In this document: one piece after another, positions 18,350 through 48,894 of the stretch
Layout of the letters: every line of letters begins with the position of its first letter
How positions within the stretch are numbered: the stretch's first letter is position 1
DNA from: Alphaproteobacteria bacterium
GTDB lineage: Bacteria; Pseudomonadota; Alphaproteobacteria; UBA6615
Reading direction: 5' to 3'
Length of the DNA stretch: 48,894 bases
NCBI GenBank assembly: GCA_028822385.1
Contig: JAPKDV010000003.1
Span: 1-48,894, forward strand
Translations under genes and position numbers: made by a program
Notes under the pieces: generated by a model
What the model was told of the DNA's origin: nothing
Databases searched by the model: none
What the model saw: only the letters and a program-made list of their open reading frames with translations

Positions 18350-18353
18350 ATGA

Positions 18354-18369: not shown

Positions 18370-18399
18370 TCGTACGACTGAATAAACGGAAGTACGGTT

Positions 18400-18428
18400 T
18401 TGACAGGGGAACCGGGAAGTCTTACATA
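18400..18428 (+). promoter_or_regulatory. Putative sigma70 promoter of the mnmG-rsmG-parAB operon
   Basis: TTGACA (18400-18405), 17-nt spacer, TACATA; 24 nt upstream of the mnmG start. Confidence 0.45.
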
Positions 18429-18452
18429 CCGCGGGCTACGACGGGTACAGAT

Positions 18453-20336: not shown

Positions 20337-20387
20337 CTCCCACATATTGTGGCTGGTTGTTATATCATTGGCTTTTATGGGGTATGC

Positions 20388-21873: not shown

Positions 21874-22811
21874 ACGAAACGCCGACACGCCGCCGATTAG
21901 GGCGCGGGCTATCTGCCCTTCTTGGGGATGACGGTCGGGACTTTCAGGAACTTGAAAACACAAAATCACCACGCGAACTGCCAGTTGAACAGTTGCAACC
22001 AGGTGAGTTTCAGCCTCGGGTTCGTTTCGATGATGAAGAACTGAGCGCTCTTGTTGAATCCGTTAGGGCCAAGGGTATCCTTCAACCCATTCTCGTTCGA
22101 CGAGATCCCGTCCAAGCTGACGTCTATGAAATTATCGCCGGTGAACGAAGATGGAGAGCGGCACAACGAGCACAATTACACACTGTACCGGTTATTATCC
22201 GTGAACTGACTGATCAGGAAGCGCTTGAAATTGCGCTGATCGAAAACATCCAGCGTTCCGATCTTTCCGCCATCGAAGAAGCTTTAGGCTATCAGAGGCT
22301 GATCGGCGAATTTACCCACACCCAAGATGCCTTGTCTAAGGTTGTTGGGAAGAGCCGAAGTCATGTCGCGAATGCCTTGCGTCTTCTAACGCTGCCGGCT
22401 GAAGTTAGAACAATGGTCGATAAAGGTGAGTTAACGGCGGGGCATGCACGCGCGCTGGTTGGCCGTGAAGACGCCTTGACCCTTGCTCGCGAAATTTCTA
22501 GTTCTGGACTTACGGTGCGTGATATCGAGGCCCGGGTTTCTAATGGATTACCGAAGGCAAGAAAATTAAAAAATTTAGCTCGACGGAAAAGCGCTGACAC
22601 CCTTGCGCTTGAGCGCGACGTTTCTGATGCAATCGGTCTTAAGGTAGCGATAGATCTGAAGGGCGGCGAACATTCTGGTCGGGGCAAATTGTCGATTGAT
22701 TTTAAAAGCCTAGACCAGCTCGACGATGTCTTGCGGCGTCTTAACCAGACGACCAATAGTAAGGGTATGCCTGATGCCCTAAAAACAGCTACTTTATCTT
22801 TCAACTCATAG
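21870..22811 (+). CDS. parB: Chromosome partitioning protein ParB
   Basis: LGRGLSALL, QPR..F, G.LQPILVR, IIAGERRWRAA, ENIQR.DL, HTH GKSRSHVAN.LRLL, GHARAL. Confidence 0.97.
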   Translation: MNETPTRRRLGRGLSALLGDDGRDFQELENTKSPRELPVEQLQPGEFQPRVRFDDEELSALVESVRAKGILQPILVRRDPVQADVYEIIAGERRWRAAQRAQLHTVPVIIRELTDQEALEIALIENIQRSDLSAIEEALGYQRLIGEFTHTQDALSKVVGKSRSHVANALRLLTLPAEVRTMVDKGELTAGHARALVGREDALTLAREISSSGLTVRDIEARVSNGLPKARKLKNLARRKSADTLALERDVSDAIGLKVAIDLKGGEHSGRGKLSIDFKSLDQLDDVLRRLNQTTNSKGMPDALKTATLSFNS

Positions 22812-24381: not shown

Positions 24382-26938
24382 AATTCACCAGTTTGTTCGG
24401 TACAACAATCACCTTGAGAATATCCTTGTCGCCGATGGATTCGGCCACATTCGAGACAGCCCTTGCTGCATTTTCTGCCTCACCTTTCTCCGTATCAGCC
24501 GGGAGGTCAACTGTGCCTCTTAGCTTGCCGTTGACCTGAATGGCATATGTGATGTTATCAGCAACGAGCAGTGACTGATCAGCGACAGGCCAACTTACTT
24601 CACTCAGGTGGGTGGTGTGTCCCAAGATGCTCCACATCTCTTCGGAGAGATGGGGCATCATCGGCGACATCAACTGTATGAGTGTCTCCAGTGCCTCGCG
24701 GGCTGTAGAGGGGCCCGTGGCTCTCTGCTTAACTGCCGTTGAAACAATATTAGTCATCTCATACATCCGGGCAACGGCGCGGTTGTATTGGAATCGTTCG
24801 AGATCTGTAGTTACATCTACAATTGCCTTGTGTACCTCTCGTCGTAGTTCAGTAGATGCGTCATCAATTTCAAATTCCGTGGATCCAACAGAAGATAAAC
24901 CGTCAGTATTGTCTGTAATCAGACGCGCAATACGATTTACAAACCGAAAGGCGCCCTGGACACCGGCATCGGTCCATTCCATATCCCGGTCGGGCGGACT
25001 GTCGGAGAGGATGAACCATCGGGCAGTATCGGCGCCGTAGTCCCGAATGACATCCGTCGGATCAATGGTGTTCTTTTTTGACTTCGACATCTTCTCAATG
25101 CGACCGATGGTAACTGGGGCGCCTGTGTCTCGGCGTACCGCGGTTCCTGTATCAGAGATATCAACACTTTGTGGTTCTAGCCATTCACCAAGACCGTCGC
25201 GGTAGGTTGTGTGATTAACCATGCCTTGGGTGAACAGTCCCGCAAACGGCTCGGACAGATCGAGATAGCCTGTGTCTCGCATCGCTCGTATGAAGAAGCG
25301 TGAATAAAGCAAATGCAATATCGCATGTTCGATCCCGCCAATATATTGATCGACGGGTAACCAGTAGTCGACGTCTTCACGCTTAACCGGGGTATCGGCG
25401 TCAGGAGAGCAGAAGCGCACAAAGTACCAGGATGAATCCATGAAGGTATCAAAGGTGTCGGTATCGCGTTCGGCGGCAACGCCACAGGATGGGCAAGCCA
25501 CATGCTTCCATGTGGGGTGCCTGTCGAGCGGATTCCCGGGCGACTCAAAATCAATATCGTCAGGCAGAATCACCGGCAGGTCTTCCTTGTGAACCGGAAC
25601 TGGCCCGCAAGCATCACAGTGAATCACCGGTATCGGGCAACCCCAATAGCGTTGACGTGAGACTAGCCAATCGCGCAGTCGATAGTTCGTTGCACCTTCA
25701 CCCTGAACCCCGTCCTGCAGACGGTCGATGATTGTTCGCTTGGCGGTATCTATATCCATACCATTTAGGAATTCAGAATTTGCCAGCACGCCTGGCCCTG
25801 TATAGGCATCGTCACCAACGGAAAATGTAGAGGTATCCTCGATGGCTGGGACCACTACCGGTATGACAGGCAGGTCGTAGGTGCGGGCGAAATCAAGGTC
25901 GCGCTGATCATGCGCGGGGCAGCCAAAGATAGCTCCGGTGCCGTATCCCATTAGAACGAAGTTGGCGATATAAACCGGTAGTTCCTTGCCTTCGACAAAC
26001 GGGTGTTTGACGCGCAGTCCTGTATCGTAGCCGCGTTTGATAGCGGTCTGAATGGCTTCCTCTGTGGTGCCGAGTCGACGGCATTCTTCAATAAATGCCG
26101 CGGCCAAGGGATCTGAAGCGGCGGCGCCTTCTGCTAGCGGGTGGTCGGCTGCGATCGCGCAGAAGCTTGCACCGAAGATCGTGTCAGGCCGGGTCGTGTA
26201 GACCCTCAATGAATCGTCCCGCCGGTCGGTGAAGGGAAAATTAATGTAAGCTCCCTCTGAACGGCCGATCCAGTTTTCTTGCATCGCTCGCACCTTTGGC
26301 GGCCAGCGGTCTAGTTTCTCCAGCCCCCCTAAGAGCTCATCACTGTAGTCGGTAATGCTGCAGAACCACTGGGCCAGACGGCGGCGTTCAATCGGGGCGC
26401 CGGATCGCCAGCCTTTTCCGTCGATTACCTGCTCATTGGCAAGAACCGTTTGGTCAATCGGGTCCCAGTTTACCCAGCCGTCCTGACGATAGATCAGGTT
26501 TTGTTTAAAAAAGTCGACAAAGATCGCCTGTTCATGGCGATAGTAATCCGGGTCGCAGGTTGTGATCTCGCGCGACCAGTCGATTGACAGTCCCATGGCC
26601 CGGAGCTGGTCGCGCATTGTTGCGATGTTCTGGTAGGTCCATTTGGCCGGGTGGACGTTGTTTTCCATTGCCGCGTTTTCTGCGGGTAATCCAAATGCGT
26701 CCCAGCCCATCGGGTGTAGAACATTGAAGCCTTGGCTGCGCTTGTAGCGTGCGACCACATCTCCGAGTGTGTAACACCGCAGATGACCCATATGAATCCG
26801 CCCTGACGGATATGGAAACATTTCAAGGACGTAGTATTTTGGTTTCGTGGGGTCCGCCACGGCCGTGAAGGTGCCGGCGTCATCCCAGACAGACTGCCAC
26901 TTTGCTTCAGCCGCGCGGAAATTATAACGTTGTACCAT
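24371..26938 (-). CDS. leuS: Leucine--tRNA ligase (likely start MVQRYN at 26938)
   Basis: [16 protein letters not shown] (HIGH motif), [42 protein letters not shown]. Confidence 0.99.
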
Positions 26939-35978: not shown

Positions 35979-36046
35979 ATGCGGAGATGGTCAAGACTGT
36001 GATCAAATTATTCGAACTTGGTGAGGTGCGCAATGAGTACAAATAA
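35979..36046 (+). pseudogene. Probable decayed 5' fragment of a PII (glnK/glnB) gene
   Basis: AAGGGG then ATG (35979), CGGAG, then ATG (35987) opening MVKTVIKLFELGEVRNEYK*. This aligns without gaps to the PII N-terminus (MK)xVxAIIKPFKLDEVR; most differences are single-base changes. Confidence 0.55.
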
Positions 36047-36866
36047 AAGCGTTTCTATTACCTTCTGGGGTGTCCGTGGTTCGATCGCGTGCCCGGGCCC
36101 AGAAACGAAAGAATTTGGAGGAAACACATCGTGTGTTGAAGTCCTGTGCGGTGATAACCGCGTAATTCTGGATGCTGGTACCGGCATTCGCCCCCTTGGG
36201 GCTTCGTTTGAAAGCGGTGCACCAGTCGATGTAGATATTCTTTTAAGCCACACACATCTGGACCACATAATTGGCTTGCCGCATTTCGAACCCGCCTATG
36301 ACGAGGGCTCCCATCTACGCTTCTGGGCCGGAAAATTTTTAGAAGAGAATACGGTCGAAGCGGTTCTGGGCATGATGATGAAGGCTCCTCTGTTCCCGGT
36401 TTCGTTAGGCTCAATGGCCGCTCGGAAAGACTTCAATGACTTTCGTGCTGGTGACACGTTTGAGTTGTCCTGTGGCGCGCAGGTGCGCACCTGCGCGCTG
36501 AACCATCGCGACGGCGCGACTGGCTACCGGATAGAGTATGGTGGCCGTACCATTTGCTACGTGACCGACACAGAACATGTGGAGGGGACCCACGACGAGA
36601 AGATCCTCTCTCTGATCGATGGTGCAGATGTGTTCATCTACGACACGACCTACACAGACGAAGAGTATCAGAGCTATCGTGGGCGAGGGCATTCGACATG
36701 GCAGGAGGGGGCAGCGCTTGCCGAGCGCGCAGGTGTGGGAACCTATGTGCCGTTCCATCATGGCCCGACCCATGATGATAAATTCATGACTAAGATCGAA
36801 CGTTACGCAAAGGACAGACTCGAAAACACCGTTATGGCACGTGAAGGCCTTACGCTTACCTTGTAG
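36033..36866 (+). CDS. MBL-fold metallo-hydrolase (RNase Z / phosphodiesterase-like subgroup)
   Basis: FWGVRGSI.CPG, GGNTSCVEV, LDAGTG, SHTHLDH (HxHxDH), Y.TDTEH, GHS, FHH.P.HDD; GAGGTG Shine-Dalgarno before ATG 36033. Confidence 0.9.
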   Translation: MSTNKSVSITFWGVRGSIACPGPETKEFGGNTSCVEVLCGDNRVILDAGTGIRPLGASFESGAPVDVDILLSHTHLDHIIGLPHFEPAYDEGSHLRFWAGKFLEENTVEAVLGMMMKAPLFPVSLGSMAARKDFNDFRAGDTFELSCGAQVRTCALNHRDGATGYRIEYGGRTICYVTDTEHVEGTHDEKILSLIDGADVFIYDTTYTDEEYQSYRGRGHSTWQEGAALAERAGVGTYVPFHHGPTHDDKFMTKIERYAKDRLENTVMAREGLTLTL

Positions 36867-37045
36867 GTTTTCTTTAAATACTCATTGGTCTCTGCACCTT
36901 AAGAGATGTGAACGCATCTCGACCGCTATTGCTAGGGCTTTGAGCTGAGCCAGGATCTTATTCGGTGACCGGATCTAGCCCCAGAAGGTGCCGTCCTCTG
37001 GTTTGTCTTTTGGTCTTCAACTCCGTTGAAAAAATGTAACTATAT

Positions 37046-38248
37046 CTACTTGTAGGGGTCTGCGGCGTCCCGCAATCCGTCACCAAGAAAGTTGAAGGCA
37101 AGGATCACAAGGATTACTGGGATCATCGGTGCCATGAGCCAAGGATAGAGCACCACCACCTGAATGTTTTGCGCCTCATTGAGCAAAACTCCCCAGCTGG
37201 TGACTGGGGGCCGCAAACCCAGCCCAAGGAAGCTCAACGCTGTTTCCCCGAGAATCATTTCAGGGATGGCCAGACTGGCAGATGCTATCAGATGGCTCGA
37301 AAAACTAGGGACCAGGTGCTTACCAATAATGCGCTTTGTACTGGCGCCCATTAAATTGGCCGCGACTGCAAAGTCTTCTTCACGCAGGGACAGCAGTTTA
37401 GATCGCACTGCGCGCGCCAGTGATGGCCAGTCGAGCATCGCTAAAATCAGTGTGATTCCGAAATAGATATTGACGGGTGACCATTTTGCGGGGAGTGCCG
37501 CGGATAATGCCATCCAGAGCGGCAATCGTGGGAAAGATTTAAGGACTTCGATCACGCGCTGGACAATGTTGTCGACTAGTCCGCCATAGAACCCGGCTAC
37601 GCCGCCAATCACTATCCCCAGCGAAAAGCTAAGCACAATTCCGATCAGCCCTATGGTCAAGGAAATGCGTGAGCCGTAAATGACGCGGGAGAACATGTCT
37701 CGGCCCAGCCGATCCGTCCCAAGAAGAAACACCGGCTTTCTGTTATTCTCGGGGCAGAACAGGTGAAAGTCACCTCTGAACAGGCCCCAAAATTCAAACT
37801 CTGACCCGCGATAGCCGCCTGAACATAAGAACCTAATACGGTTTACCTTGTTCATGTCGGGTGTGTAGATCTTCTGCAGGGTCTCGGGGTCACGCTTGGA
37901 GTTGAACCCGTAGACAAACGGGCCGACCAGCTTGCCGTCATGGAATAGATGGATACCCTGAGGTGGCGCAAAGGTGTGGCGCACGTCACGATGTTGCAGC
38001 TCATAAGGAGCCACGACTTCGGCGAACATGGCGACCAGGTACATCAACAACAGGAAAACGCCGGCCGCTACGGCGATCTTGTGCCGGCGCAGTTTCCACC
38101 ACATCAGCTGCCACTGGCCAGCCATATAATATTTTTCCTGCTCCGCAGTGAGGACAACTTCGGCGTCCGGGTTGAAAGGCTCCTTGGATACGAAGTGCGG
38201 AATTTCGTCCAGCGCTTCGGGGTCGCGAGGGTCTTTGGTTTCGGTCAT
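37046..38248 (-). CDS. ABC transporter permease (OppC/DppC type)
   Basis: LLGTDRLGRD.FSR..YG.RISL.IG, EAA-like LREEDF..AA..MGA, FNFLGDGLRDAADPY. Confidence 0.95.
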   Translation of the reverse strand: MTETKDPRDPEALDEIPHFVSKEPFNPDAEVVLTAEQEKYYMAGQWQLMWWKLRRHKIAVAAGVFLLLMYLVAMFAEVVAPYELQHRDVRHTFAPPQGIHLFHDGKLVGPFVYGFNSKRDPETLQKIYTPDMNKVNRIRFLCSGGYRGSEFEFWGLFRGDFHLFCPENNRKPVFLLGTDRLGRDMFSRVIYGSRISLTIGLIGIVLSFSLGIVIGGVAGFYGGLVDNIVQRVIEVLKSFPRLPLWMALSAALPAKWSPVNIYFGITLILAMLDWPSLARAVRSKLLSLREEDFAVAANLMGASTKRIIGKHLVPSFSSHLIASASLAIPEMILGETALSFLGLGLRPPVTSWGVLLNEAQNIQVVVLYPWLMAPMIPVILVILAFNFLGDGLRDAADPYK

Positions 38249-39243
38249 CGTGTGTTCCCGCCACTAAGACGAATACGTGGGTCAAGGGCGGCGAGCGCAA
38301 GATCGGAAAGCAGGGTGCCTATCACCACAAGCGTGGCGAGGAACATCAGGAAAGATCCGGCCAAGAACATGTCCTGGGCGCGCAGGGCGTCGAGCAGCAT
38401 GCGGCCTGTAATATCTAGATTAAGGACAACCGCAACCACCGCCGAGCCGGAAATAACTTCGGGCAGGATTGAGCCGATATCTGCGATGAACGGATTAAGC
38501 GCCACCCGTAACGGGTATTTCCAGAGCAGCTTGCGCGGGTGCAGGCCTTTGGCCCGACCTGTGACGACATATTGCTTTTGTAGTTCGTCGAGCAGATTGG
38601 CGCGCAGACGACGGATCATGCCTGCCGTGCCCGAGGTGCCGATGACGATCACCGGAATCCACAGATGTTCGAGAACCGAAAGCATCTTGCCCCAGGACCA
38701 TGGTTGATTGCGGTACTCGTCATCCATGATCCCGCCGATTGATGTGTCGAACCACTGGTTGGCGAAATACATCAGTACGAGCGCGAGCAGGAAGTTTGGC
38801 GTGGCCAATCCCAGATAGCCGATCAGGGTCGCGGCGTGATCCGAGACGCTGTACTGGCGGGTGGCGACATAGGTGCCGATCGCGAAGCTCACCACCCAAA
38901 TGAACAGGATGGTGGAGAAGGTGACGACAAAGGTCAGCAGGATGCGCTGGCCAATCAGTTCCGAGACAGGGCGGTTGTGCTCAAACGACCATCCGAAATC
39001 ACCTTGCAGAAGCCCGAACAGCCAAGAGAAATATTGCTGCACCGCCGAGTCATCTAGGCCGTAGGCCTGCCGCAGGGCGGCGATCTGGTTCTGGTCGACG
39101 GCCTCACCGCGGGACTGCATTTCCGCTATCAGCGTCTCTAGATAGTCGCCGGGGGGCAACTGGATGATCAGGAAGACGATCGCGCTGACGGCGAGCAGTG
39201 TTGGAATCATCACCAGCAGGCGAAGGGCGATATAGCGAAGCAT
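38245..39243 (-). CDS. ABC transporter permease (OppB/DppB type)
   Basis: MLRYI..RL..MIPTL, IQLPPGD, GDFG.SF, ELQKQYV.T.RAKG, DL....LDPRIR. Confidence 0.95.
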   Translation of the reverse strand: MLRYIALRLLVMIPTLLAVSAIVFLIIQLPPGDYLETLIAEMQSRGEAVDQNQIAALRQAYGLDDSAVQQYFSWLFGLLQGDFGWSFEHNRPVSELIGQRILLTFVVTFSTILFIWVVSFAIGTYVATRQYSVSDHAATLIGYLGLATPNFLLALVLMYFANQWFDTSIGGIMDDEYRNQPWSWGKMLSVLEHLWIPVIVIGTSGTAGMIRRLRANLLDELQKQYVVTGRAKGLHPRKLLWKYPLRVALNPFIADIGSILPEVISGSAVVAVVLNLDITGRMLLDALRAQDMFLAGSFLMFLATLVVIGTLLSDLALAALDPRIRLSGGNTR

Positions 39244-39246
39244 AAT

Positions 39247-41148
39247 CTAGCGTCCTGCCAAGTCGTCAAAATAGAAGGTGTCGGGTAGGTAAATCCCAAA
39301 ATGTGAGCCGGGGTCCCAGGCATAGATGGCCTCCAGCGGCACATTCTTCAGATTGTCTGACACCACGACGGGCTGGCGCGTGCAGCACACAACGCCGATC
39401 GTGTAGGTTTCTTCGGCGTTGATTTCCAGAATGCGCGTCCATATTTCTGCGCGTCTTGCGGGTTCTTCAATCGTTTGCCAGAGCTTGAATAGCTTGAAAA
39501 GCTCCTGCGCTTCGGGGATGTCGATCTGAGCTCCGGCTCTGCCGCCGGTTTCGTAATACTGTCCCCATTTCGGCCACTGGTACTGCACCTGCTGGCTCGG
39601 CACGAACTCGAAGGGGCTCATACCGGCTGTGACAATGCCGTTGTTGATACCGGACCAGACGCTCATCTGGGTCTCGCCGGAGAAAATACGGTTCCGGAAA
39701 ACCTCACGCTGGGACGGACGGGTAAAAATCTTGATGCCGATCTCGAGCCAGGTGTCGTGGATCAGTTCGAGGACATCGGTTTGCTCGGTTTCTTCACCGG
39801 CGGTTTCGACCACAATCTCCATCCGTCGACCGTCTGGCAGCAATCGGACGCCGTCGCGCTCACGTTCTGTAAGCCCCAGTCCATCTAACAGGGCATTGGC
39901 TTCGTCGAGATCCAGCCGGGCCCATTTGTTTCGGTACACATCCTTGAAGAGCGGGCTGCGATCCAGAACCGTGTTGTTCGAAGCCTTGGCTAGACCGAAA
40001 TAAATCACCTCGTTGATTTCCTCACGGTCGATCGCAAGGCTGAGGGCGTGCCGAAAATCACGTTCGCGGAACAACTCACGCCAGACCGGATCGGCCACAT
40101 GCATGTTCGGGTAAATCGCAATCCGCGCACCCTGTGCGGTTTCCCACAACCGGGTTTTGAAATCTTCTCTTGCTTCTGCCAGTTTGAGAAACGTGAAGTG
40201 GCTCATGAACAGGCTGCGGGCTTGCAAATCAATCTCTCCGGCGCTGGCTTTTGCCGGAATCAACTTCCCGTCGGAAATGTTCATCAGCACGCGGTTGATA
40301 TAAGGCAGCTGATTGCCAGAGCTATCGACCCGGTGGAAATACGGGTTGCGCACGAACACGAATTGCTGGGCCGGTGGGCGAATGGTGTTGAACCAGGGCT
40401 GCAGGGTGGGCAGCATCGGGTTGTCCATATCGTAGAGATTGTCCCGGCTGTTGTGCAGCGGGCCCCAGCCGCGCATGCGGCGTTTCTTGATGTGCGCATC
40501 CAGCTCGTCGGGGCGAGCATATTTTTTGTGGAACTCTTTAAGGTAATGCGCCGGGCGGAAAATGAAGGGTGGGCGTGGTCCGGCCATGGCCGGCAAGAAG
40601 AACGGGTTGGGCTTGGACCAGCTGAAGCGGATCGTGCGTACGTCGATAATCTCAACCTTGGCGACTTCCCCATCAACCTTCAGCAACGCCGGCGGGCCAA
40701 GCGGCGCCAGTTCGATATTGTTGGCCACATCCTCCCACCAGTAACGGAAATCTTCGGTCGTGAACGGGTGACCGTCTGACCATTTATGTCCCTTACGCAG
40801 GGTCAGCGTGAAGACCTTGTCGCTCTCACTTTCGAAGGATTCCAGGATGTCGGGGACTAGATTGTAGGAGCGGTCATAGCCGACAAGGCGGGCATATCCA
40901 TAGACCGTCATCAGGCGCGTATCGCGTGAGCGGGCCATTGCGATGCGCAGGTCGCCGCCATATGTACCGACAGCTTCAGCCCCCACAACACGGGGTGGAT
41001 TGGGCAGGCGCTGGTCGAGTGGCGGCAGTTTGCCGACGTCGACTCTGGCCTTTAGTGTGGGCGCCTGTTCGAAGGCCTGACCCGGTGTTGGTGAAGTTGC
41101 AACCAAGGCGGTTAGGCCAAGAGCTGCGATGATGATCCTAGGGTTCAT
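39247..41148 (-). CDS. ABC transporter substrate-binding protein, family 5 (OppA/DppA-like)
   Basis: Sec signal peptide from ATG 41148; G.LPP..QRLP.PP, LRKGHKWSDG.PFT..DF, RNPYF..VD..GNQLPYI, FR.ALSLAIDR.EIN. Confidence 0.93.
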   Translation of the reverse strand: MNPRIIIAALGLTALVATSPTPGQAFEQAPTLKARVDVGKLPPLDQRLPNPPRVVGAEAVGTYGGDLRIAMARSRDTRLMTVYGYARLVGYDRSYNLVPDILESFESESDKVFTLTLRKGHKWSDGHPFTTEDFRYWWEDVANNIELAPLGPPALLKVDGEVAKVEIIDVRTIRFSWSKPNPFFLPAMAGPRPPFIFRPAHYLKEFHKKYARPDELDAHIKKRRMRGWGPLHNSRDNLYDMDNPMLPTLQPWFNTIRPPAQQFVFVRNPYFHRVDSSGNQLPYINRVLMNISDGKLIPAKASAGEIDLQARSLFMSHFTFLKLAEAREDFKTRLWETAQGARIAIYPNMHVADPVWRELFRERDFRHALSLAIDREEINEVIYFGLAKASNNTVLDRSPLFKDVYRNKWARLDLDEANALLDGLGLTERERDGVRLLPDGRRMEIVVETAGEETEQTDVLELIHDTWLEIGIKIFTRPSQREVFRNRIFSGETQMSVWSGINNGIVTAGMSPFEFVPSQQVQYQWPKWGQYYETGGRAGAQIDIPEAQELFKLFKLWQTIEEPARRAEIWTRILEINAEETYTIGVVCCTRQPVVVSDNLKNVPLEAIYAWDPGSHFGIYLPDTFYFDDLAGR

Positions 41149-41149
41149 G

Positions 41150-43036
41150 TCAGGCGACCTCCGGGAGTGCGCCGCGATCAGGATCGGCACGTACAAAATG
41201 TCCATCTGCAAGCTCGACAAGCCTTGGCTGGCTCGTGCTGTCGATGGTGAAAGGGGCCGGCCAGTTGGTGGGATCAGATGCGCGATCTTCCATCAGGCCG
41301 GAAAGATCCAGCTTCTTCTCGATATTGGGCTCCGGCACAGCGGAGAGAAGCGCGCGGGTATAAGGGTGTGCCGGGTTACGGAACAACACGTCCTTGGGCG
41401 CCAACTCGACCAGCCGTCCGGCACACATCACTGCGATCCGGTCGGCGATGTAATCGACCACGGCCAGATTGTGACTGATGAACAGATAGGTCAGCCCAAG
41501 CTCGGACTGCAGGTCTTTGAGCAGGTTCAGAATTTGCGCCTGAATCGAAACGTCGAGCGCGCTGACCGGCTCATCACAAATCAGCAGATCGGGTTTTAGG
41601 GCAAGCGCCCGGGCGATCCCGATGCGCTGGCGCTGTCCGCCGGAGAAGCTGTGGGGGTAGCGGTTCAGGAAGCGCGGGTCCAGACCCACAAGCCGCATCA
41701 GCTCGCGCACGGTGTCTGCGCGGGTTTCCGTGGTGCCGATGTTGTGGATGACCAGTGGTTCGGAGATGATTGCGAACGCGGTCATGCGCGGGTTGAGGGA
41801 GCCGAAGGGGTCCTGGAACATGAACTGGACCCGGCGACGAAAATCCTTGAGTTCCCGATTTTTCAACGCCAGCACATCAACAGGCTGACCGCCCTCGAAG
41901 AAAGTGATGGCCCCACTGTCGGTGCTCAGGGCCCGCATCACCAATTTGGACGTGGTGGTCTTGCCGCAGCCGGATTCACCTACGAGACCGAGACATTCGC
42001 CGCGTGCGATCTCGAAGCTCACATCATCAACGGCAAGAACCTCGCGCGATTCCTTCGATCCGAAATAGCTGCCTTTGCGGATTGTGAAACTCTTGGAGAG
42101 ATTTTCGACCCGCAATAGAGGGCCTTCCGCGCGGTCCCGAACACGATCCTCATCGGGTTTGAGCATGTTTCCGGTTTCCGCCTTGATCTCGCGCAGCGGC
42201 ACTAGCCTTTCACCCTCCCTGAGGCCGAAACGCGGCACGGCATTCAGCAGGGCTTTGAGATAAGGGTGACTGGGATTTTTGTAGATCGCGTTGAGACTGC
42301 CGCTTTCCATTACCTTGCCGCGGAACATCACTACGACCTCCTCTGCGACATTGGCCACCACACCCAGATCGTGGGTGATCATAAGCACGGCCATGCCCAG
42401 TTCGGATTGTAGGTCCTTGATCAATTTTAGTATCTGCGCCTGAATAGTCACGTCGAGCGCGGTGGTCGGCTCATCGGCGATGAGAAGTGCGGGTCGGCAG
42501 ACAAGCGCCATGGCGATCATGGCGCGCTGGCGTAACCCACCGGATAATTCGAACGGATAGGTTTTCATCGCGCGCGCCGGACCGGGGAACCCGACCAGTC
42601 GCAGCATGTCTGTAGACAATTCCCGACCCGCTGGCTTGTCGATCTTGCGATGCAGGTGCAGCGCTTCGCTGATTTGATCGCCGATCGTGTGGAGTGGCGA
42701 AAGGGAGGTCATCGGTTCCTGGAAGATCATCGAGACCCGGCCGCCGCGGATGGCGCGGATCTGCGGTCCGTCGCGGTCGAGCTTTGCCAGATCGACGGGT
42801 GTGCCGTCACTATTCGGGTCGGTGAAAAGAATTTCACCGCCGGCAACCGATCCTATATTGGGAAGAATGCCCATGATCGCCTGACTGCAGACCGATTTAC
42901 CTGAGCCGGATTCCCCAACGAGGGCTGTCGTCCCGCCCGGACGGATGCGGAAGGAGACGCCGTCGACAGCGCGAATTTGTTCGCCGTGGACGGTAAATTC
43001 GACCTTGAGGTCGCGTACGGAAAGAAGGTCGTTCAT
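41150..43036 (-). CDS. ABC transporter ATP-binding protein with two fused NBDs (OppD-OppF type)
   Basis: GESGSGKS / LSGGLRQR / DEPTTALDV and GESGCGKT / FSGGQRQR / DEPVSALDV; ATGA overlap at 43033-43036. Confidence 0.96.
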
Positions 43037-43581
43037 CGGCGCCAATCCGCTGGGTTGCCCCAGCCGCTTAATGCAGCGGGGGTTTCGTTATGCTGTATCG
43101 CATCGCCCACTCCCAGGCCGATAACGGCAAGGTTGCGTGCAGTGGCATCAGAAAGTTCGATGTCACGGGTCTGGGTCACGCGGAACGCGTGCCGGCAGAT
43201 GTCTTCAAATCCCTCGAGGGTGGAATGAAGCGCGATCTTCTGCCCGCCTGCCCGCAGGGTTAGTTGCATCCAACCCGCTTCCCGGTCGCGCCGGGTAGAG
43301 AAGTAGGACAGCTTGAGTGCATCCAGATCGTTCCAGGTGATTCGCGCCGACGTCCAGCCGGTCATCTCGATCGTGTCATCGTCGAGGGTGACTATGGTGC
43401 GTGTGTGGAGCCGGGTGCGCAGGCCAAACAAACCAAAAAAAGCCGCGGGTACGGCCAGCACATAAGTGGCCGTTGCGCCGGGCTCGATGAAGAACATCGG
43501 CGTGACGCAGGCGGCCACACCGAGGCTAGCGCGCAGCAAATCCGCGTTGAGATCGCGGCGATGATAACGATGCGTACTCAT
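43033..43581 (-). CDS. Hypothetical membrane protein (two N-terminal TM helices plus a beta-rich soluble domain)
   Basis: ATGA overlaps with both neighbours; hydrophobic pair ASLGVAACVTPMFF / YVLAVPAAFFGLFGL; LSYFSTRRDR..GWMQL segment. Confidence 0.75.
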   Translation of the reverse strand: MSTHRYHRRDLNADLLRASLGVAACVTPMFFIEPGATATYVLAVPAAFFGLFGLRTRLHTRTIVTLDDDTIEMTGWTSARITWNDLDALKLSYFSTRRDREAGWMQLTLRAGGQKIALHSTLEGFEDICRHAFRVTQTRDIELSDATARNLAVIGLGVGDAIQHNETPAALSGWGNPADWRR

Positions 43582-44387
43582 GCGGCGGGAAAGACCTTTT
43601 CGGCCGACAGCCACTGGGCGGCTGGATGATGCTTCGTGTATTCGACAAACTTGCGCACAAACTCTTTCGATTCCGTTTCCATGACCGCGTGATGGGTCAT
43701 CAAGCCGGTTGCTTCATCGGCGTCCGCTGTGCCGGTGCGCCGGGCCTCAAGATGGGCGCAGGCAGCGCCGAGAATATTGTCCTGGCCCAGAAAGCCAACG
43801 GGAGCTCCGGTTTGTTTGCCCCGCCAGTCGACGATATCGATATGCACATTGTTGGCACGCACACCCGTTATCGGTGAAAGGCGTGGGCGGGGGCCCAGCG
43901 TGCTCAGGCCGCGAAATCCGAGCTCTGGAAGAAACGGGATCAGATGGGGTGCAATGCGGTTCCATGGGGGAACCAGAACCGGGAGGAAACCGGGAAAGCT
44001 TTCGAGCGCCTGGGTCCCGGTCGCGAGATCACCGATCACATAGGCTGCGGGTCGACTGTCATCGAGTTCGATCTTGCGCGCGCCGTATTCGGCAAAATTG
44101 GTGTGCGCATAGCCGTGCTGCAGCACCGAAAAATTCTCGGCAGATAGCAAAAGGGTGCGCAATGCGGAGGTCGCGTGCGCGGGCACAACTGCAAGCGCCA
44201 GCGGCACGTCGAGCGTGTTGCGCAGGTCCAGCAGGTTTTCAAGCGCTTGCGTGTGGTCAGCCGCATCGTCATCACGCCACCAGAAAGTGGCGGTGCGCCC
44301 GTCCTCCGTCCAGAGGTCGAGCTCGCGCGTGAGGGCTTCCCAAGCCGTTGCCGGCTCGTGCGCGCCTTTGGTCATCGCCAAGGCCAT
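43578..44387 (-). CDS. Polysaccharide deacetylase family protein (CE4/NodB-like)
   Basis: WWRDDDA, PLALAVVP, QHGYAH, LVPPWNR, G.MTHH. Confidence 0.85.
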   Translation of the reverse strand: MALAMTKGAHEPATAWEALTRELDLWTEDGRTATFWWRDDDAADHTQALENLLDLRNTLDVPLALAVVPAHATSALRTLLLSAENFSVLQHGYAHTNFAEYGARKIELDDSRPAAYVIGDLATGTQALESFPGFLPVLVPPWNRIAPHLIPFLPELGFRGLSTLGPRPRLSPITGVRANNVHIDIVDWRGKQTGAPVGFLGQDNILGAACAHLEARRTGTADADEATGLMTHHAVMETESKEFVRKFVEYTKHHPAAQWLSAEKVFPAA

Positions 44388-44460
44388 GTGTCTTTACAAC
44401 TCTCCCAGCCTATTCGAGCCCCTCAACCCATATCGTCTTCTTGTATGCACAGTAGCGGGA

Positions 44461-45672
44461 TCAGGCGTCGGGGTTAACCACCATTTCGCCAGTTTCGGTC
44501 CCATTTTCGATATTTCGATGTTGATTCAGGGCTTGGCGAAGCATCGCAGCGGTGTTTTCGGCCCCGGCCATGTCTACAGGTGCTGAAATTCGGTCCGGAC
44601 GGGCCATGGCGCGCGCGATCGCCCGGGCAACATTCTCGGCCGTAACGGCTCCGGGCTCGACGATTTCAAGCGCGCCTTTCTCTGTCAGCAGACTGCAACG
44701 CAACGTCTGTTCGCTTTCGAGTCCGCCGGCATAGGGGATGCAGACGGCGCGGGTGCCCGCGGCCAGAACCTCCATCACCGTGTTGTAGCCGCCTTGCGAG
44801 ATCGACAGGGTGCAATTGGAAAGTAGCTGTCGGAAGTCGGGGCGTGACCGCTCTACGGTGACGCCATCGGGCGCGCTGTCGCGATAGGCTGCGAACTCGG
44901 CTTCGGGAAGATTGTGGCCGACCAGTACCCGCCAGGGCGTGTCGGACAAGGATGAAGCAGCGCGTGAATCAATAGCGGCCTGGAGCATGTCGTCACTAAC
45001 CGCGCCGCCGCCGGTAGAGACGATCACTTCGCCTGCTCCCGGGCCTTTCGCGTCGCGCGGCAGCGATACATCGGCGACATAGCCGGTGTAACGGGAGATG
45101 TCTGTGATCTCGGACATGCGCGGGAAGGTTTTGTCAAAAGCGATAAAGCTGCGGTCGCCGTGGATGAGTACCAGATCGAAATAGCGACGAACGCGCTCGA
45201 CCATCTCGTCGACCCGTTCAGGCTTGCCGGGCTCCACAAGAATGTCACGCACGGAAGAGACTATCAGGGGGCGCGGTGTACCGGCCGTGCGCGCGGCGTT
45301 GAGTAGGGGTTCGATCTCGAAACGCATCTGGCGGCGCCCAAAGGGAAATAGCTCAATCATAACAATGTCCGGCTGGGTCTGGGCGAAAATTCCGCACAGT
45401 TGCGCGGTGCGGGCCGCCTTCCACACATCGTCGATTTGTTGGTTGTGTTTATCAACCAGAACTTTAAAAAACTTGTCAGTCGCGCGTGTCGGGGAGAGTT
45501 GTTCGAACCGGGTGGCACCGGATACAAATCCAGGCACAGCTGTACCTCCCGAAACTAGCGTCACCTCGAACCCGTTGGCCTCGAGCGCTCGCGTAAGCGT
45601 GCCCGCACGCATCAAATGGCCGATGCCGAGCAGGTGCTGAACATAGAAGAGAATTTTGGGGCGGGTGTTCAT
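44461..45672 (-). CDS. Glycosyltransferase, GT-B fold (GT28/MurG-like C-terminal domain)
   Basis: YVQHLLGIGH..R, ELFPFGRR..RFE, SSVRDIL, VS.GGG, SISQGGYNTVME, EQ..R. Confidence 0.88.
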   Translation of the reverse strand: MNTRPKILFYVQHLLGIGHLMRAGTLTRALEANGFEVTLVSGGTAVPGFVSGATRFEQLSPTRATDKFFKVLVDKHNQQIDDVWKAARTAQLCGIFAQTQPDIVMIELFPFGRRQMRFEIEPLLNAARTAGTPRPLIVSSVRDILVEPGKPERVDEMVERVRRYFDLVLIHGDRSFIAFDKTFPRMSEITDISRYTGYVADVSLPRDAKGPGAGEVIVSTGGGAVSDDMLQAAIDSRAASSLSDTPWRVLVGHNLPEAEFAAYRDSAPDGVTVERSRPDFRQLLSNCTLSISQGGYNTVMEVLAAGTRAVCIPYAGGLESEQTLRCSLLTEKGALEIVEPGAVTAENVARAIARAMARPDRISAPVDMAGAENTAAMLRQALNQHRNIENGTETGEMVVNPDA

Positions 45673-45691
45673 TAGCTGGCTCTTGCCACCC

Positions 45692-46279
45692 TCAGCCTTT
45701 GAGAGGAAGGTTGAGTTGTTCAATGGTGGCCGAGCCGTCGGCGGTCGCCTCGAAGACTTGCCCGCGCCGTCGCGACATCTCGTCGGGGGTTTCGCCCGAG
45801 AGGTTCCAGCCGGTGGCGATCCCGTAAACCGTGCGGATCACCCCGCGATGGGTGACGACGATGCGTGGGCCATCCTGTTGTGCGGCATCAGCCAGAAATT
45901 CACCAATACGGCCCAGCATGTCCCGGCGGCTTTCACCGTTTTCCGGACGGTGAGCCGGATCATGGGCGTTGTCGCCTTCGGTGGTTTCCATCTCGTGCAG
46001 GTTGCGGCCTTCCCAGATGCCCCAGGATTTCTCCATCAGGCGCTGGTCGGTTTCGATCGCGCCGAGCTCGGGATGGCCAGATTTGAGAATCTCGGCTGTT
46101 TCCATGCTCCGGATCAGCGGGCTGGCAACAATCGGACAGTTGATGAGGTGGCTGGGCAGGCGCCATGCGGCAACCATCTCGCGCCCGTCATCGTTCAACG
46201 GGATATCCCGGCGGCCTTGAAGGCGTCGTTCGACATTCCATTGGGTCAGACCGTGGCGCAAAAATACGAGTTGGGTCAT
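45692..46279 (-). CDS. Histidine phosphatase (phosphoglycerate mutase) family protein
   Basis: LRHG.T.WN...RLQG..D.PL, SPL.R..ETA, WG.WEG, GES, VTH.GVIR. Confidence 0.92.
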   Translation of the reverse strand: MTQLVFLRHGLTQWNVERRLQGRRDIPLNDDGREMVAAWRLPSHLINCPIVASPLIRSMETAEILKSGHPELGAIETDQRLMEKSWGIWEGRNLHEMETTEGDNAHDPAHRPENGESRRDMLGRIGEFLADAAQQDGPRIVVTHRGVIRTVYGIATGWNLSGETPDEMSRRRGQVFEATADGSATIEQLNLPLKG

Positions 46280-47433
46280 GTCGATTTTACAACCATGGTG
46301 ACGGTTTTCAGGGTGGCGTCGAGCCGCTCGGCTGCGACGGGTATGTCATATTGTTCGCGCACGCGTCGGGCCGCAGCGCTGCCCATGCGGGCGCGTGTTT
46401 CCGGGTCGTCGATCAGGCCTCCGATGGCCTTCGCAAAGGCATCGATATCGTCGGGTGGCGGCAATCGCCCGGTGATGCCGGAGGCGACAATATCGGGAAC
46501 GCCCCGCTGCTTGCTTGCGATCACCGGCAATCCGGCGGCCTGGGCCTCCAGAAGGGCGATGCCGAAAGCTTCGTCTACAGCGGGCCAAATAAGCATATCG
46601 CTGGCTGCGTAGACTTTGGCAAGTTCGCTGGATTCAAGCACACCCAGCAAGGTGACGCGCCCAGGTGCGGCGGTCTCCAGCATCTGCGCGATGGTTTCTC
46701 GTCGCGGCCCGTCACCCGCAACAAGCAGATGCCAGTTGTCTCCGGGTAACTGTTTCAGGGCCTCGGCGAGCTGCGCGTAGGAGCTTTCCTTTGCGCCCGC
46801 CCGCATCATTCCCACGGCAAGCAGCAGCACGGTGTCGTTGGACCAGCCGCCATGTTTGGCGTGGGCTGCGCGCAAGCTGGCACGTCGGGACATCGCGTCG
46901 TCATAGATGGAGGCCTCGACAAAGGGCAGCAGTCGACGGTGCAGGACAGGTTCCTGCGCGACCGGTTGCAGGCAGTCCCAGTCATCACTGTTGAGGGTGA
47001 GGATGGCATCCGCCCGGGCGATGGCGGCGTTGGCGCCCCGATAGCCAATATCCCACGGTCCGCCGGCTTGCTTGGGAGCGGTCGAGGCTTCGGCGATCAG
47101 ATAGGGAATGTTGAAGGTATCTGCGATGCGCGGACCCAGCCAGTCCGGTGTCTTGTGATAGAGGTGATAGGTCATCCAGGCCATCGGTCGTTCTTCGATC
47201 GGCCGCGTGCGCAATTGCCGGATCAGGCGTTCGGCGAGCTTGTCCCCGAGTGACTTGAGCCGTGCCTGCCGCACCGGATCACCATGTCCGTCGCGGGTGA
47301 CAAAATGTGAGATCAGTTCGGGGGTATGCCCGGCGTGACGTAACGCAGCCATGAACAGGCGCGCGAGATGCCGGTCCCCTGAGGGCACCGGGTGATCGGG
47401 CGGTTTCATCGGGGCGTAGAACGCGACACGCAT
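46276..47433 (-). CDS. Glycosyltransferase family 4
   Basis: AFYAP.KPP.HP.PSGDR, TYH.YHK.PD..GP, GDGP, E-x7-E motif EAFGIALLEA, G.PV. Confidence 0.9.
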   Translation of the reverse strand: MRVAFYAPMKPPDHPVPSGDRHLARLFMAALRHAGHTPELISHFVTRDGHGDPVRQARLKSLGDKLAERLIRQLRTRPIEERPMAWMTYHLYHKTPDWLGPRIADTFNIPYLIAEASTAPKQAGGPWDIGYRGANAAIARADAILTLNSDDWDCLQPVAQEPVLHRRLLPFVEASIYDDAMSRRASLRAAHAKHGGWSNDTVLLLAVGMMRAGAKESSYAQLAEALKQLPGDNWHLLVAGDGPRRETIAQMLETAAPGRVTLLGVLESSELAKVYAASDMLIWPAVDEAFGIALLEAQAAGLPVIASKQRGVPDIVASGITGRLPPPDDIDAFAKAIGGLIDDPETRARMGSAAARRVREQYDIPVAAERLDATLKTVTMVVKST

Positions 47434-47434
47434 G

Positions 47435-48718
47435 TCAGGCCGCCGCCTGCGTCGGGTTTAGGGCGTCACTGGCCAACGCGTTCGAAATGGCGTCGATTCC
47501 GTCGCGCAGGTCGAACTCCGTTCGTACGCGTAGGCTGCCCGCCGCGGCCAGACTGCGGCGCTGACTGGGATTAGCTGCGAGTTGTGCGATGGCACCGGCA
47601 AGCGCCTCAGAATCTCCCGGGTTGACGAGAAGTCCGGTCTCGCCGTCCCTGATGAGCTCGGGAATGGCAGACACGTCTGTGGAGATACAGGCCACCCCAA
47701 CCGCCTGGGCTTCCATCAGCACGTTCGGTAGGCCATCGCGGTCGCCATCGGTCGCAATTTTGCTCGCAAGAACGAAGATATCTGAATTGGCGAGCAGCGC
47801 CTTCACGTCACGCTGCGGCTTGCGCCCATGCCAGATGATACGTTGCGACAGGCCAAGGCGCGTCGCGCGCGCAGTCATATTTTTTTCCAGATCACCACCG
47901 CCAATGTGTTCAAAGCGCCATTCGAGATCATCAGGAAGCCGGGCCAGGGCATCGAGAAGGTCGTCGTAGCCCTTTTTCTCGACCACCCGTCCGACCGAGG
48001 CGATGCGGACAGGGCCATCCAGGTTGGCGGGCACACCGTTTGTGGCATCAGCAAAACGTGCGAAATCAAGGCCGTGATAGTGGAGGCGCACCTTGGCTAC
48101 ATCCGCTCCCATAAGTTCGCGCAAGTGATCGGCACCGTAGCGGGTACAGGTGGTCAGCCATTCGGCGTCTGCAATCTTCTCCCGCTTTTCCCAGTCCGGG
48201 GTCGTCCAGATGTCCTTGGCATGGGCTGAGATTGTAAAGGGAAGCGCACGGATTTTTGCGGCGTAGCGCGCCACCGAAGCCGGGGTGTGCAGGAAATGCG
48301 CATAGATCATCCCGGTCTCGGCGTGCAGATCATGGGCGAGTACGCAGGCCTGCCCGAACCGACGGATGCGATTGGGGGTTCGGTCCCGTTGGAAGTCTTC
48401 GCGGAAGGCTCGCAGTGCTGTGTGGTAGGCTGGCAATTTGCGTACTTTCCACCAGCACCCCAGCACGCGGAATGGCGCGCGCCACAGATATTCAGGCAGG
48501 TAATTTACCGTGGCGACGATTTCATCATGGATCGGGTGGGTTTCCGGGTCATAGGGTTGCCGCAGAGACTGGATGTCCAGTGTGTGGCCCCGCTCTTCGA
48601 GCCCATACAATTCCTGCGCAATGAATGTTTCGGACAGCCGTGGGTAACCCTTGAGCACCACCGCTATGCGCGACCCTGCTCTTGCCTCACTGGCGCCGTT
48701 CTCGCGGCGTGCGTCCAC
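47435..48718 (-). CDS. Glycosyltransferase family 4
   Basis: LKGYPRLSETFIAQE, AHF.HTP, SAHAKDI, VGR.VEKKG, DRDGLPNVLMEA. Confidence 0.92.
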   Translation of the reverse strand: MDARRENGASEARAGSRIAVVLKGYPRLSETFIAQELYGLEERGHTLDIQSLRQPYDPETHPIHDEIVATVNYLPEYLWRAPFRVLGCWWKVRKLPAYHTALRAFREDFQRDRTPNRIRRFGQACVLAHDLHAETGMIYAHFLHTPASVARYAAKIRALPFTISAHAKDIWTTPDWEKREKIADAEWLTTCTRYGADHLRELMGADVAKVRLHYHGLDFARFADATNGVPANLDGPVRIASVGRVVEKKGYDDLLDALARLPDDLEWRFEHIGGGDLEKNMTARATRLGLSQRIIWHGRKPQRDVKALLANSDIFVLASKIATDGDRDGLPNVLMEAQAVGVACISTDVSAIPELIRDGETGLLVNPGDSEALAGAIAQLAANPSQRRSLAAAGSLRVRTEFDLRDGIDAISNALASDALNPTQAAA

Positions 48719-48894
48719 TCAGTATTGTCCGGCGTGCCGGCTCCCTGCCGCGCGCCCAATGACACGCATTTTTTCACGGCGGCGCCCGGCGGCCATGTCT
48801 ACAAGGCGGTTCACATTGCGTAAGCCATCCAGCAGGCCTGGGACCACGACTTCGGACGGCACGCTTTGCTGCGGCAGATGTCGCAAGGCGGTGG
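48719..48894 (-). CDS. C-terminal end of an upstream gene, probably another GT-B glycosyltransferase; runs off the window
   Basis: Not in the ORF track. An open frame reads ..TALRHLPQQSVPSEVVVPGLLDGLRNVNRLVDM..GQY*, with TGA at 48719-48721 abutting the next GTG start. The 'LDG...V' ending parallels GT28-like C-termini such as 'DMAGAENTA' in the 44461-45672 product. Confidence 0.6.
   Translation of the reverse strand, partial: TALRHLPQQSVPSEVVVPGLLDGLRNVNRLVDMAAGRRREKMRVIGRAAGSRHAGQY

Follow-up and report, generated by a model that had tools for sequence, protein, structure and literature searches.

An alphaproteobacterial operon coupling glycosyltransferases, a putative de-N-acetylase and an Opp-family importer, with its likely counterpart in the Sinorhizobium meliloti PPP/red cluster

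Contig JAPKDV010000003.1 of the Alphaproteobacteria bacterium assembly GCA_028822385.1 (lineage UBA6615; 2.43 Mb in 233 contigs, 89.8% complete) ends in an operon that joins glycosyltransferases to an importer. The contig, C91 in our numbering, was analysed whole and is referred to below as the window (48,894 nucleotides). Its minus strand carries eleven reading frames between positions 48894 and 37046, of which ten are complete and one is cut (Table 1). They encode, in order, a glycosyltransferase (GT) of which the window holds only the 3' end (GT0), two GT4 enzymes (GT4a and GT4b), a histidine phosphatase, a GT28-like enzyme, a deacetylase-like protein, a small protein with two transmembrane helices (the 2-TM protein), a fused double ATPase, a family-5 substrate-binding protein (SBP) and two permeases. 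From sequence comparison, we consider this operon to be the counterpart of the PPP/red cluster (SMb21252-SMb21271) on pSymB of Sinorhizobium meliloti, and we describe here the conserved linkage of its enzymes with the importer. Taking as gene starts the first ATG or GTG consistent with homologue alignments, the ten junctions measure, in order, 0 nt (partial GT0/GT4a), 1 nt (GT4a/GT4b), -4 nt (GT4b/phosphatase), 19 nt (phosphatase/GT28-like), 73 nt (GT28-like/deacetylase), -4 nt (deacetylase/2-TM), -4 nt (2-TM/ATPase), 1 nt (ATPase/SBP), 3 nt (SBP/permease 1) and -4 nt (permease 1/permease 2), the overlaps all being of the ATGA type. An earlier note, made from the sequence of this DNA alone, had described at least 11 co-oriented genes with tight coupling at eight of ten junctions, and the start-codon check bears this out, eight junctions being 4-nt overlaps or 0-3-nt gaps. 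Scanning the 3' end for promoters and terminators gave no hits.

The operon arrangement is not an assembly artefact: each of the 30 bins into which 36000-48894 was divided is covered to at least 99% by contigs from another study's independent marine run, which also bridge gene junctions of the operon and have no insertions or deletions. Joints at 42481-42708, at which 175-225 nt are missing from high-depth contigs of three seawater runs, were considered and set aside. These contigs match over only about 25 nt on one side, most likely represent the conserved ATPase-domain sequence of other organisms, and say nothing about the operon locus. The earlier note had proposed reading beyond position 48894, where genes of a conventional polysaccharide locus might have been found. 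One end of contig C47 (4,954 bp) is identical to the window end over exactly 55 nt, and the GT0 frame continues into it; GT0 of a homologous locus (L009) matches C47 at 83% and the window end at 73%. Upstream of GT0 and divergent from it, C47 encodes an 898-residue ATP-binding cassette (ABC) protein of exporter-like type, a 150-residue cyclic nucleotide monophosphate (cNMP)-binding protein and a PF12692 methyltransferase. It encodes no wzx, wzy, priming transferase, chain-length regulator or Wzm/Wzt-type transporter.

To locate the counterparts in S. meliloti 1021, the operon proteins were mapped on pSymB, 820-848 kb, with GT0 of locus L009 as the query for the cut gene. Nine operon genes have counterparts within one 23-kb stretch. 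For the importer, identities are 62% for the ATPase (SMb21260, E 0.0), 49% for the SBP (SMb21261, E 0.0), 64% for permease 1 (SMb21262, E 9e-137) and 61% for permease 2 (SMb21263, E 1e-154). Among the enzymes, GT0 is 51% identical to redA (SMb21264, E 1e-108), GT4a 52% to redB (SMb21265, E 5e-117), the GT28-like enzyme 41% to SMb21266 (E 3e-78) and GT4b 37% to SMb21252 (E 9e-62), and the deacetylase-like protein is 35% identical to SMb21253 (E 4e-34), the sole match of its family on pSymB. The proteins on C47, outside the window, match as well, the ABC protein at 38% (SMb21269, E 3e-164) and the cNMP-binding protein at 58% (SMb21270, E 9e-53). A metallo-beta-lactamase (MBL)-fold hydrolase, convergent with our operon, is 42% identical to SMb21254 (E 2e-64), which adjoins the deacetylase gene in S. 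meliloti. The coordinates in Data Set S1 of PMC10128002 (SMb21252, 56, 64, 65, 66, 69 and 71) agree with these matches, and SMb21253 and SMb21260-63 were assigned from row order in the same data set. The S. meliloti order is lyase, ATPase, SBP, two permeases, redA, redB, GT, ABC exporter and cNMP protein. It thus differs from ours in placing the importer ahead of redA and the GT4b-deacetylase pair 7 kb away, and its methyltransferase is of the FkbM type where ours is PF12692.

Table 1. Genes of the operon and neighbouring genes. Positions refer to the window, except where contig C47 is named.
Feature	Position	Strand	Assignment and S. meliloti counterpart
GT0, first glycosyltransferase, 3' end (57 codons)	48719..48894	-	COG4671/GT28-like; redA (SMb21264) counterpart
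GT4a, GT4 glycosyltransferase	47435..48718	-	Pfam Glycos_transf_1, E 2e-35; redB (SMb21265) counterpart
GT4b, GT4 glycosyltransferase	46276..47433	-	Pfam Glycos_transf_1, E 9e-31; SMb21252 counterpart
Histidine phosphatase, branch 1	45692..46279	-	Pfam His_Phos_1, E 2e-34
GT28-like/COG4671 glycosyltransferase	44461..45672	-	Pfam Glyco_tran_28_C, E 2e-9; SMb21266 counterpart
Putative CE4-fold (NodB-like) de-N-acetylase	43578..44387	-	Predicted structure; SMb21253 counterpart
2-TM protein, small membrane protein with PH-like cytoplasmic domain	43033..43581	-	Predicted structure
Fused double ATPase, Opp/Dpp-family importer	41150..43036	-	Pfam 2x ABC_tran + oligo_HPY; SMb21260 counterpart
Family-5 periplasmic SBP	39247..41148	-	Pfam SBP_bac_5, E 4e-50; SMb21261 counterpart
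Importer permease 1	38245..39243	-	Pfam BPD_transp_1 + BPD_transp_1_N; SMb21262 counterpart
Importer permease 2	37046..38248	-	Pfam BPD_transp_1 + OppC_N; SMb21263 counterpart
MBL-fold hydrolase, convergent with operon	36018..36866	+	Pfam Lactamase_B_2, E 1e-22; SMb21254 homologue
ABC exporter-like protein	C47 964-3660	-	ABC_membrane + ABC_tran domains

Pfam agrees with the earlier note on the two GT4 enzymes, the histidine phosphatase, the GT28-like enzyme, the fused ATPase, the family-5 SBP and the two permeases, and none of the operon proteins reaches a curated NCBIfam cut-off. The best NCBIfam matches of GT4a are EpsE and WcaL, over the full length and far below cut-off. For GT4b, the models stp2, BshA (81 bits), EpsE and MshA (73 bits) match the C-terminal donor domain only, likewise below cut-off. 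The GT28-like enzyme, of which GT0 is a paralogue, has weak PDB sequence matches to MurG and YjiC, and the phosphatase scores best with CobC, reaching 93 bits where the cut-off is 162.9. At one locus (L147, 8488-10374) the GT28-like and deacetylase genes lie in a single stop-free frame, a possible fusion; found in one of 131 loci, it was too rare to serve as a clue and was dropped.

The deacetylase-like protein had been called a carbohydrate esterase family 4 (CE4) enzyme in the earlier note, and this call is supported by a predicted structure and not by sequence searches. There was no match in Pfam (E up to 10; Polysacc_deac_1 included) or NCBIfam, and none among PDB sequences even with a 15-row profile, the one PDB row returned in the searches with this and the 2-TM protein, to a TAL effector, being rejected as a chance repeat match. 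The family itself is large: of 8,000 candidates scored, over 6,000 fall at E <=0.001. A model built from 15 homologues had a predicted local distance difference test score (pLDDT) of 87.5 and a predicted template-modelling score (pTM) of 0.86. Submitted to Foldseek, it retrieved 104 PDB chains at E <=0.001, the top rows being CE4 enzymes at template-modelling (TM) scores of 0.5-0.6: a mycobacterial polysaccharide deacetylase first (3rxz, E 2e-7, TM 0.58), followed by PgdA, Bc1960, chitooligosaccharide deacetylases, PuuE and ArnD. The predicted fold is therefore of the CE4/NodB type, a distorted beta/alpha barrel. Among the 15 sequences D39/D40, H91, H95, R144, H232 and H233 are invariant or nearly so, and D40 together with the other five residues looks like the metal-binding and catalytic motifs of CE4 enzymes. 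The N-terminus, judged by eye from the sequence, is unlike a signal peptide, and the enzyme should therefore act in the cytoplasm.

The earlier note had suggested examining gene neighbourhoods across Proteobacteria, with the proviso that its idea would fall if enzyme and ABC genes did not occur together. Two sets of loci were examined. In the first, a profile of the deacetylase family led to 585 confirmed public loci, and the operon proteins were mapped on the 80 closest of these. At least three of the four GTs, the ATPase and both permeases were present in 39 of these loci; 11 had the GTs and an incomplete importer, 9 the importer and fewer GTs, 8 the deacetylase alone and 13 some other partial set, many loci being cut by contig ends. 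The second set was drawn from 401 class genomes sampled evenly, in which the deacetylase family occurs in 126 genomes and 90 of 307 genera; 20 kb were taken around 80 places in 79 of the 126 genomes, chosen beforehand only by distance from the contig start. Here 52 of the 80 loci had at least three GTs with the ATPase and both permeases, all 52 colinear and on one strand, and a further 6 had the importer with fewer than three GTs. The 52 full loci also contain the phosphatase (49), the SBP (49), the 2-TM protein (43), the ABC exporter-like protein (41), the cNMP-binding protein (39), the PF12692 methyltransferase (30) and the MBL-fold hydrolase (19). Since enzyme and ABC genes do occur together, colinearly and in both Alpha- and Gammaproteobacteria, the linkage of enzymes and importer is real.

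This linkage also survives reshuffling, in S. meliloti, on an Azospirillum oryzae plasmid and in Motiliproteus. In Azospirillum the exporter lies ahead of the GT28-like gene, the A. oryzae plasmid having the order ABC exporter, importer, GTs, phosphatase, GT, deacetylase; Motiliproteus has a further order, with blocks on opposite strands. Outside the Alphaproteobacteria, the cluster was seen in Gammaproteobacteria (Motiliproteus, Acidiferrobacterales, Competibacterales) and in metagenome-assembled genomes labelled Acidimicrobiales and Opitutus; these occurrences could reflect horizontal transfer or binning error.

If the enzymes and the importer belong together, what might the importer carry? 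It has the full Opp/Dpp (PepT) set by Pfam: a family-5 SBP, two BPD_transp_1 permeases and oligo_HPY ATPases. Scores stay below every NCBIfam equivalog cut-off (GsiA 616 against 1077, YejF 529 against 834, GsiB 18.6 against 594, YejB 126 against 445). The best PDB sequence match of the SBP is 5ipw (E 6e-84), labelled a putative oligopeptide binder. Next in interest are SPH1118 of Sphingomonas sp. A1 (PDB 7ver; E 1e-71 over residues 26-631), a binder of pectin oligosaccharides (PMC9314435), and a periplasmic alpha-galactoside-binding protein (PDB 6epy; E 3e-27). Lower in the ranking are binders of chitin oligosaccharides and mannosides, with classical OppA and MppA a long way below. The nearest solved relatives with a name thus bind oligosaccharides rather than peptides, which suggests an SBP of the oligosaccharide type, as the earlier note had anticipated, even with a putative oligopeptide binder as the top match.

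A simpler view takes the importer for a passenger: a transporter for peptides or nutrients of the ordinary kind, functionally unconnected with the glycan enzymes. Its assignment by Pfam and NCBIfam to the peptide/nickel/opine family, the label of 5ipw and the existence of genomes with the enzymes and without the importer all speak for this view, as does the phenotype of S. meliloti, where the importer genes SMb21260-63 score -0.41, 0.38, 0.23 and 0.36 under the peptide antibiotic phazolicin, which is no phenotype (PMC10128002), so that the importer is not needed for the protective function. A mere passenger would hardly be expected to keep colinear linkage at 52 of 80 sampled loci from many families and through at least three gene orders, to share overlapping start and stop codons at the deacetylase/2-TM/ATPase junctions, or to have an SBP whose closest relatives of known structure and ligand are oligosaccharide binders. 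In the class sample, moreover, the 2-TM gene, which is sited between enzyme and transporter genes, occurs only together with the importer. We consider the passenger view quite improbable.

The 2-TM protein has no match in Pfam (E up to 10), NCBIfam or PDB sequence searches. Its model (pLDDT 83.9) consists of two long helices followed by a beta-sandwich of 6-7 strands and a helix. Foldseek returned nothing at E <=0.001, the best rows being mostly PH/PTB domains at E 0.016-0.2, and "PH-like" is therefore a topology call and not an assignment to that family. In the class sample the 2-TM gene is present at 49 loci at which the ATPase gene follows that of the deacetylase, and is never found without it, 20 loci having neither and 10 the ATPase alone. 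Three loci of the closest-80 set have the 2-TM gene only, and at least two of them (L012, L015) look like deletion remnants or contig-end cuts. A complex prediction of residues 1-160 with both permeases scored 0.51 against 0.15 for the best control and was rated 'weak support'. Of 157 solved complexes 116 pass the mark set for this procedure, as do 2 of 215 mismatches, with passes at or below 0.60 comprising only 18 solved complexes and both mismatches. The runs agreed in at least 85% of contacts, with partner pLDDT of at least 74. Taken together, the models and the gene distribution suggest that the 2-TM protein is likely an accessory of the importer.

What is known of the function of such a cluster comes from S. 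meliloti. PPP stands for 'phazolicin-protecting polysaccharide': under phazolicin, fitness depends on nine genes of the interval smb21252-smb21271 (Travin et al. 2023, PMC10128002). The reported values range from -3.5 to -5.4 for SMb21252, 53, 56, 59, 64, 65, 66 and 69, with -4.5 for the lyase SMb21259, while SMb21271 reaches about -4 when the two higher doses are used; minimum inhibitory concentrations are lower for mutants in smb21252 or smb21265 alone (PMC10128002). The same paper cites a pyocyanin screen in A. tumefaciens and transposon sequencing in Medicago, and seven of the nine PPP genes are induced under Myxococcus attack (PMC10315480). A link to the adjacent S. meliloti cluster for a sulfated polysaccharide, nodP2-smb21248 (PMC5498481), was considered and rejected, SMb21247-51 having no phazolicin phenotype. 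The earlier note knew of no characterised product for this gene set. The product is indeed uncharacterised, and the gene set itself has a precedent with a published phenotype: the operon is a further member of a cluster that is genetically known and biochemically unsolved.

The cNMP-binding protein gene is a constant neighbour of the ABC protein gene, and S. meliloti cyaA is also depleted under phazolicin (PMC10128002). The S. meliloti cNMP gene SMb21270 (L166, about 24539-24967) has values of +1.09, +1.46 and +3.13 under phazolicin, not significant and with 5 in the count column; being opposite to those of all other cluster genes, they would fit a negative regulator. In Rhizobiaceae (S. meliloti R14 pSymB and a plasmid of R. 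leguminosarum WSM1325), genes for an adenylate/guanylate cyclase and a DUF3095 protein adjoin the GT4b-deacetylase pair, and R. leguminosarum seems to retain only this pair together with MBL, methyltransferase and ABC ATP-binding genes. Against the NCBIfam model of a cyclic-nucleotide phosphodiesterase, the MBL-fold hydrolase of our window scores 52 bits, a weak match (cut-off 400) that extends over the full length. The hydrolase could be part of a cNMP control of the cluster.

The authors of PMC10128002 'speculate' that PPP is a surface polysaccharide acting as a barrier. Extended to our operon, this would mean a conventional long polymer exported by the ABC half-transporter, with the importer either feeding on breakdown products or unrelated. 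S. meliloti additionally requires the UDP-sugar dehydrogenase SMb21256 and the PF14099 polysaccharide lyase SMb21259, the latter encoded directly before the importer genes. This would suit a polymer, as would the similarity of GT4a, along its entire length and below cut-off, to EpsE and WcaL. The conserved set, on the other hand, lacks a polymerase, a flippase, a chain-length regulator and a priming transferase, and it also lacks an outer-membrane export protein, a synthase-type GT2 and an ABC-2 (Wzm/Wzt, KpsMT) transporter. Frames common to at least eight loci around five reference loci include no flippase, polymerase, chain-length regulator, priming transferase or Wzm/Wzt-type transporter, and the earlier note, which saw no flippase, Wzy/Wzz, priming-transferase or nucleotide-sugar genes in the operon, is borne out by the remainder of the window, where there are none either. 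Among the other loci the lyase was found in none and the dehydrogenase in two; both are Rhizobiaceae additions. Four GT-B enzymes and a half-transporter fit a defined oligosaccharide better than a long chain. We regard the conventional polysaccharide as unlikely.

The earlier note itself leaned towards an osmolyte or a similar small product. In this view the enzymes would make a cytoplasmic compatible solute or a small thiol-like glycoside, comparable to sucrose, glucosylglycerate or mycothiol, and the importer would recapture leaked solute. The combination of GT4, histidine phosphatase and deacetylase does mirror the logic of MshA, phosphatase and MshB, and the donor domain of GT4b is matched by the BshA and MshA models. 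Against it, four GTs exceed what such a product needs, no thiol ligase or acetyltransferase is present, and the phosphatase is dispensable in the S. meliloti version. Most importantly, the reported phenotype is one of antibiotic protection at the envelope (PMC10128002) and an exporter-type ABC gene belongs to the conserved set, adjacent here and required in S. meliloti; both argue against a cytoplasmic osmolyte, and we regard the idea as highly improbable.

The reading that we favour, with modest confidence, is that the operon is the copy, in this marine alphaproteobacterium, of a PPP/red-type cluster devoted to an envelope glycan with an amino sugar, which is built in the cytoplasm and exported, and of which fragments are retrieved. 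It builds directly on gene content, tight coupling, synteny, the S. meliloti correspondence, the CE4 fold and the relatives of the SBP. In this scheme, four soluble GT-B enzymes (two COG4671/GT28-like, two GT4), the phosphatase and the CE4-fold de-N-acetylase would assemble a short cytoplasmic glycan carrying a free amino sugar on a phosphorylated or lipid acceptor. The divergent, atypical ABC half-transporter, paired with the cNMP-binding protein and the methyltransferase, would move this glycan over the inner membrane, its role as an exporter being suggested by the domain type. Once in the envelope, the glycan may lower permeability to harmful compounds. The Opp-family importer, with its oligosaccharide-type SBP and PH-like two-helix accessory, would return released fragments, or possibly a precursor. 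A tie between importer and glycan is suggested by the conserved linkage, by the oligosaccharide-binding relatives of the SBP and by the lyase context in S. meliloti, where a required lyase directly before the importer is the arrangement expected if glycan fragments are the cargo. What kind of glycan is made, how large it is, which way the two transporters work and what they carry are our inferences, and so is the retrieval, since the S. meliloti importer genes have no phenotype where the enzymes have one; of the recapture imagined in the earlier note, the enzyme-importer linkage has thus been established and the recapture itself is a proposal. A bolder version, which we find possible and rather doubtful, is that PPP is no polysaccharide but a short, de-N-acetylated (cationic) oligosaccharide or glycoconjugate of cytoplasmic origin, released via a cNMP-controlled degenerate ABC protein and brought back by a dedicated oligosaccharide importer with a PH-like accessory subunit. 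Such a regulated cycle of an envelope-protecting glycan would then exist in about one third of alphaproteobacterial genera.

Several observations weigh against the envelope-glycan cycle, besides the silent importer mutants and the surface polysaccharide that PPP is speculated to be. In the class sample, 12 of the 80 loci have the GTs and no complete importer nearby, and 10 have the deacetylase gene alone, these being distant homologues at 27-48% identity except for L082 (72%). Five of the genomes with GTs only were searched whole. Three of them proved to hold a strong match to the SBP (50-51% identity), in two cases just outside the fetched stretch, and the remaining two, which belong to a single genus, gave none at E 1e-20. 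The S. meliloti cluster is without the histidine phosphatase and the 2-TM protein, and, conversely, the UDP-sugar dehydrogenase and the lyase required there are absent from the window. In the genome of the window the lyase has no match at E 1e-5, and the sole dehydrogenase homologue lies elsewhere (C65, 33% identity). The two products may therefore differ. The product was never isolated, and a literature search found no PPP work later than PMC10128002 and PMC10315480. The search found nothing on DUF3095, COG4671, PF12692/Methyltransf_17, smb21260-64 or smb21269 and nothing relevant on redA and redB of S. meliloti or the origin of these names, and a paper on pSymB minimisation (PMC12239276) does not mention the PPP-cluster genes. 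Finally, the ATP site of the ABC protein is degenerate. Among 80 homologues, the Walker B Asp is replaced by N in 51 and S in 21 and kept as D in 4, the Walker A Lys is K in 57 and R in 18, and the H-loop His is kept in 32; the C47 copy itself has Ser at Walker B and Asn at the H-loop position. Between Q-loop and signature motif the ABC protein carries an insert of about 340 residues. Given the degenerate site and the insert, the ABC protein may not be a pump. By eye, the motif that normally follows the Q-loop is seen three times in this insert.

The locus is also dispensable, which counts against the same cycle: a same-genus genome that is 100% complete keeps only remnants. In this genome the deacetylase, cNMP, methyltransferase and MBL genes are kept, and neither the GT28-like gene nor the SBP counterpart was found; a genome of the same family also lacks these two. 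Close relatives (L001, L002, L004/L082, L008, L011 and L013) have deletion remnants only, with out-of-frame junctions and an open deacetylase gene. For instance, ATPase residues 1-306 abut residues 454-956 of the ABC protein in another frame; in another case an inverted piece of the ATPase gene lies on one side of the deacetylase gene and the final 115 residues of the ABC protein on the other. It follows that the locus is an accessory one, which certain marine lineages are losing. The remainder of the window is housekeeping (mnmE, mnmG, rsmG, parAB, rho, hemE, hemH, leuS and others). The genes mnmE, mnmG, rsmG, parA and parB stand in a row, with rho nearby (16994-22811 and 10377-11642), and a set of this kind usually lies near the chromosomal origin. 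The cluster is therefore chromosomal in this genome.

The deacetylase family of this cluster occurs in about 30% of the sampled alphaproteobacterial genera, and the effect on antibiotic sensitivity is strong in the one organism tested. In the accessible portions of PMC10128002 and PMC10315480, the tie to the importer, the PH-like protein and the neighbouring pair of a degenerate ABC protein and a cyclic-nucleotide sensor are not discussed. Together they turn a vague 'surface polysaccharide' into a concrete cycle that can be tested, and the SBP offers a direct handle for fishing out the glycan of the cluster. As the locus is intact here and present as remnants in a same-genus genome, it may mark an ecological difference between close marine relatives.

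Several characterised systems share parts of this arrangement. GsiABCD imports glutathione and YejABEF microcin C and peptides; both have the domain set and fused ATPases of our importer, and gsiABCD has its order of ATPase, SBP, permease and permease. They differ in that the SBP here is closest to oligosaccharide binders and that an additional PH-like membrane protein is encoded alongside. SPH1118 and the 6epy protein are, like our SBP, long family-5 proteins (about 620-680 residues) with full-length similarity to it at moderate identity, but they serve the assimilation of plant sugars and are not encoded with biosynthetic enzymes. The C47 ABC protein shares the ABC_membrane and ABC_tran domains, and weak model matches, with NdvA/ChvA, HepA, MsbA and PglK, whereas its scores are far below cut-off and its nucleotide-binding domain carries the long insert. 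A transferase step followed by de-N-acetylation to a free amino sugar is the common logic of MshA, a phosphatase and MshB, of BshA and BshB, and of NodC, NodB, NodS and NodIJ. Our operon has no NodC-type GT2, acyltransferase or cysteine ligase, and its deacetylase is not of the LmbE/PIG-L type. It resembles the Nod factor system in its CE4-fold deacetylase, predicted to be cytoplasmic, its nearby methyltransferase and its ABC export component.

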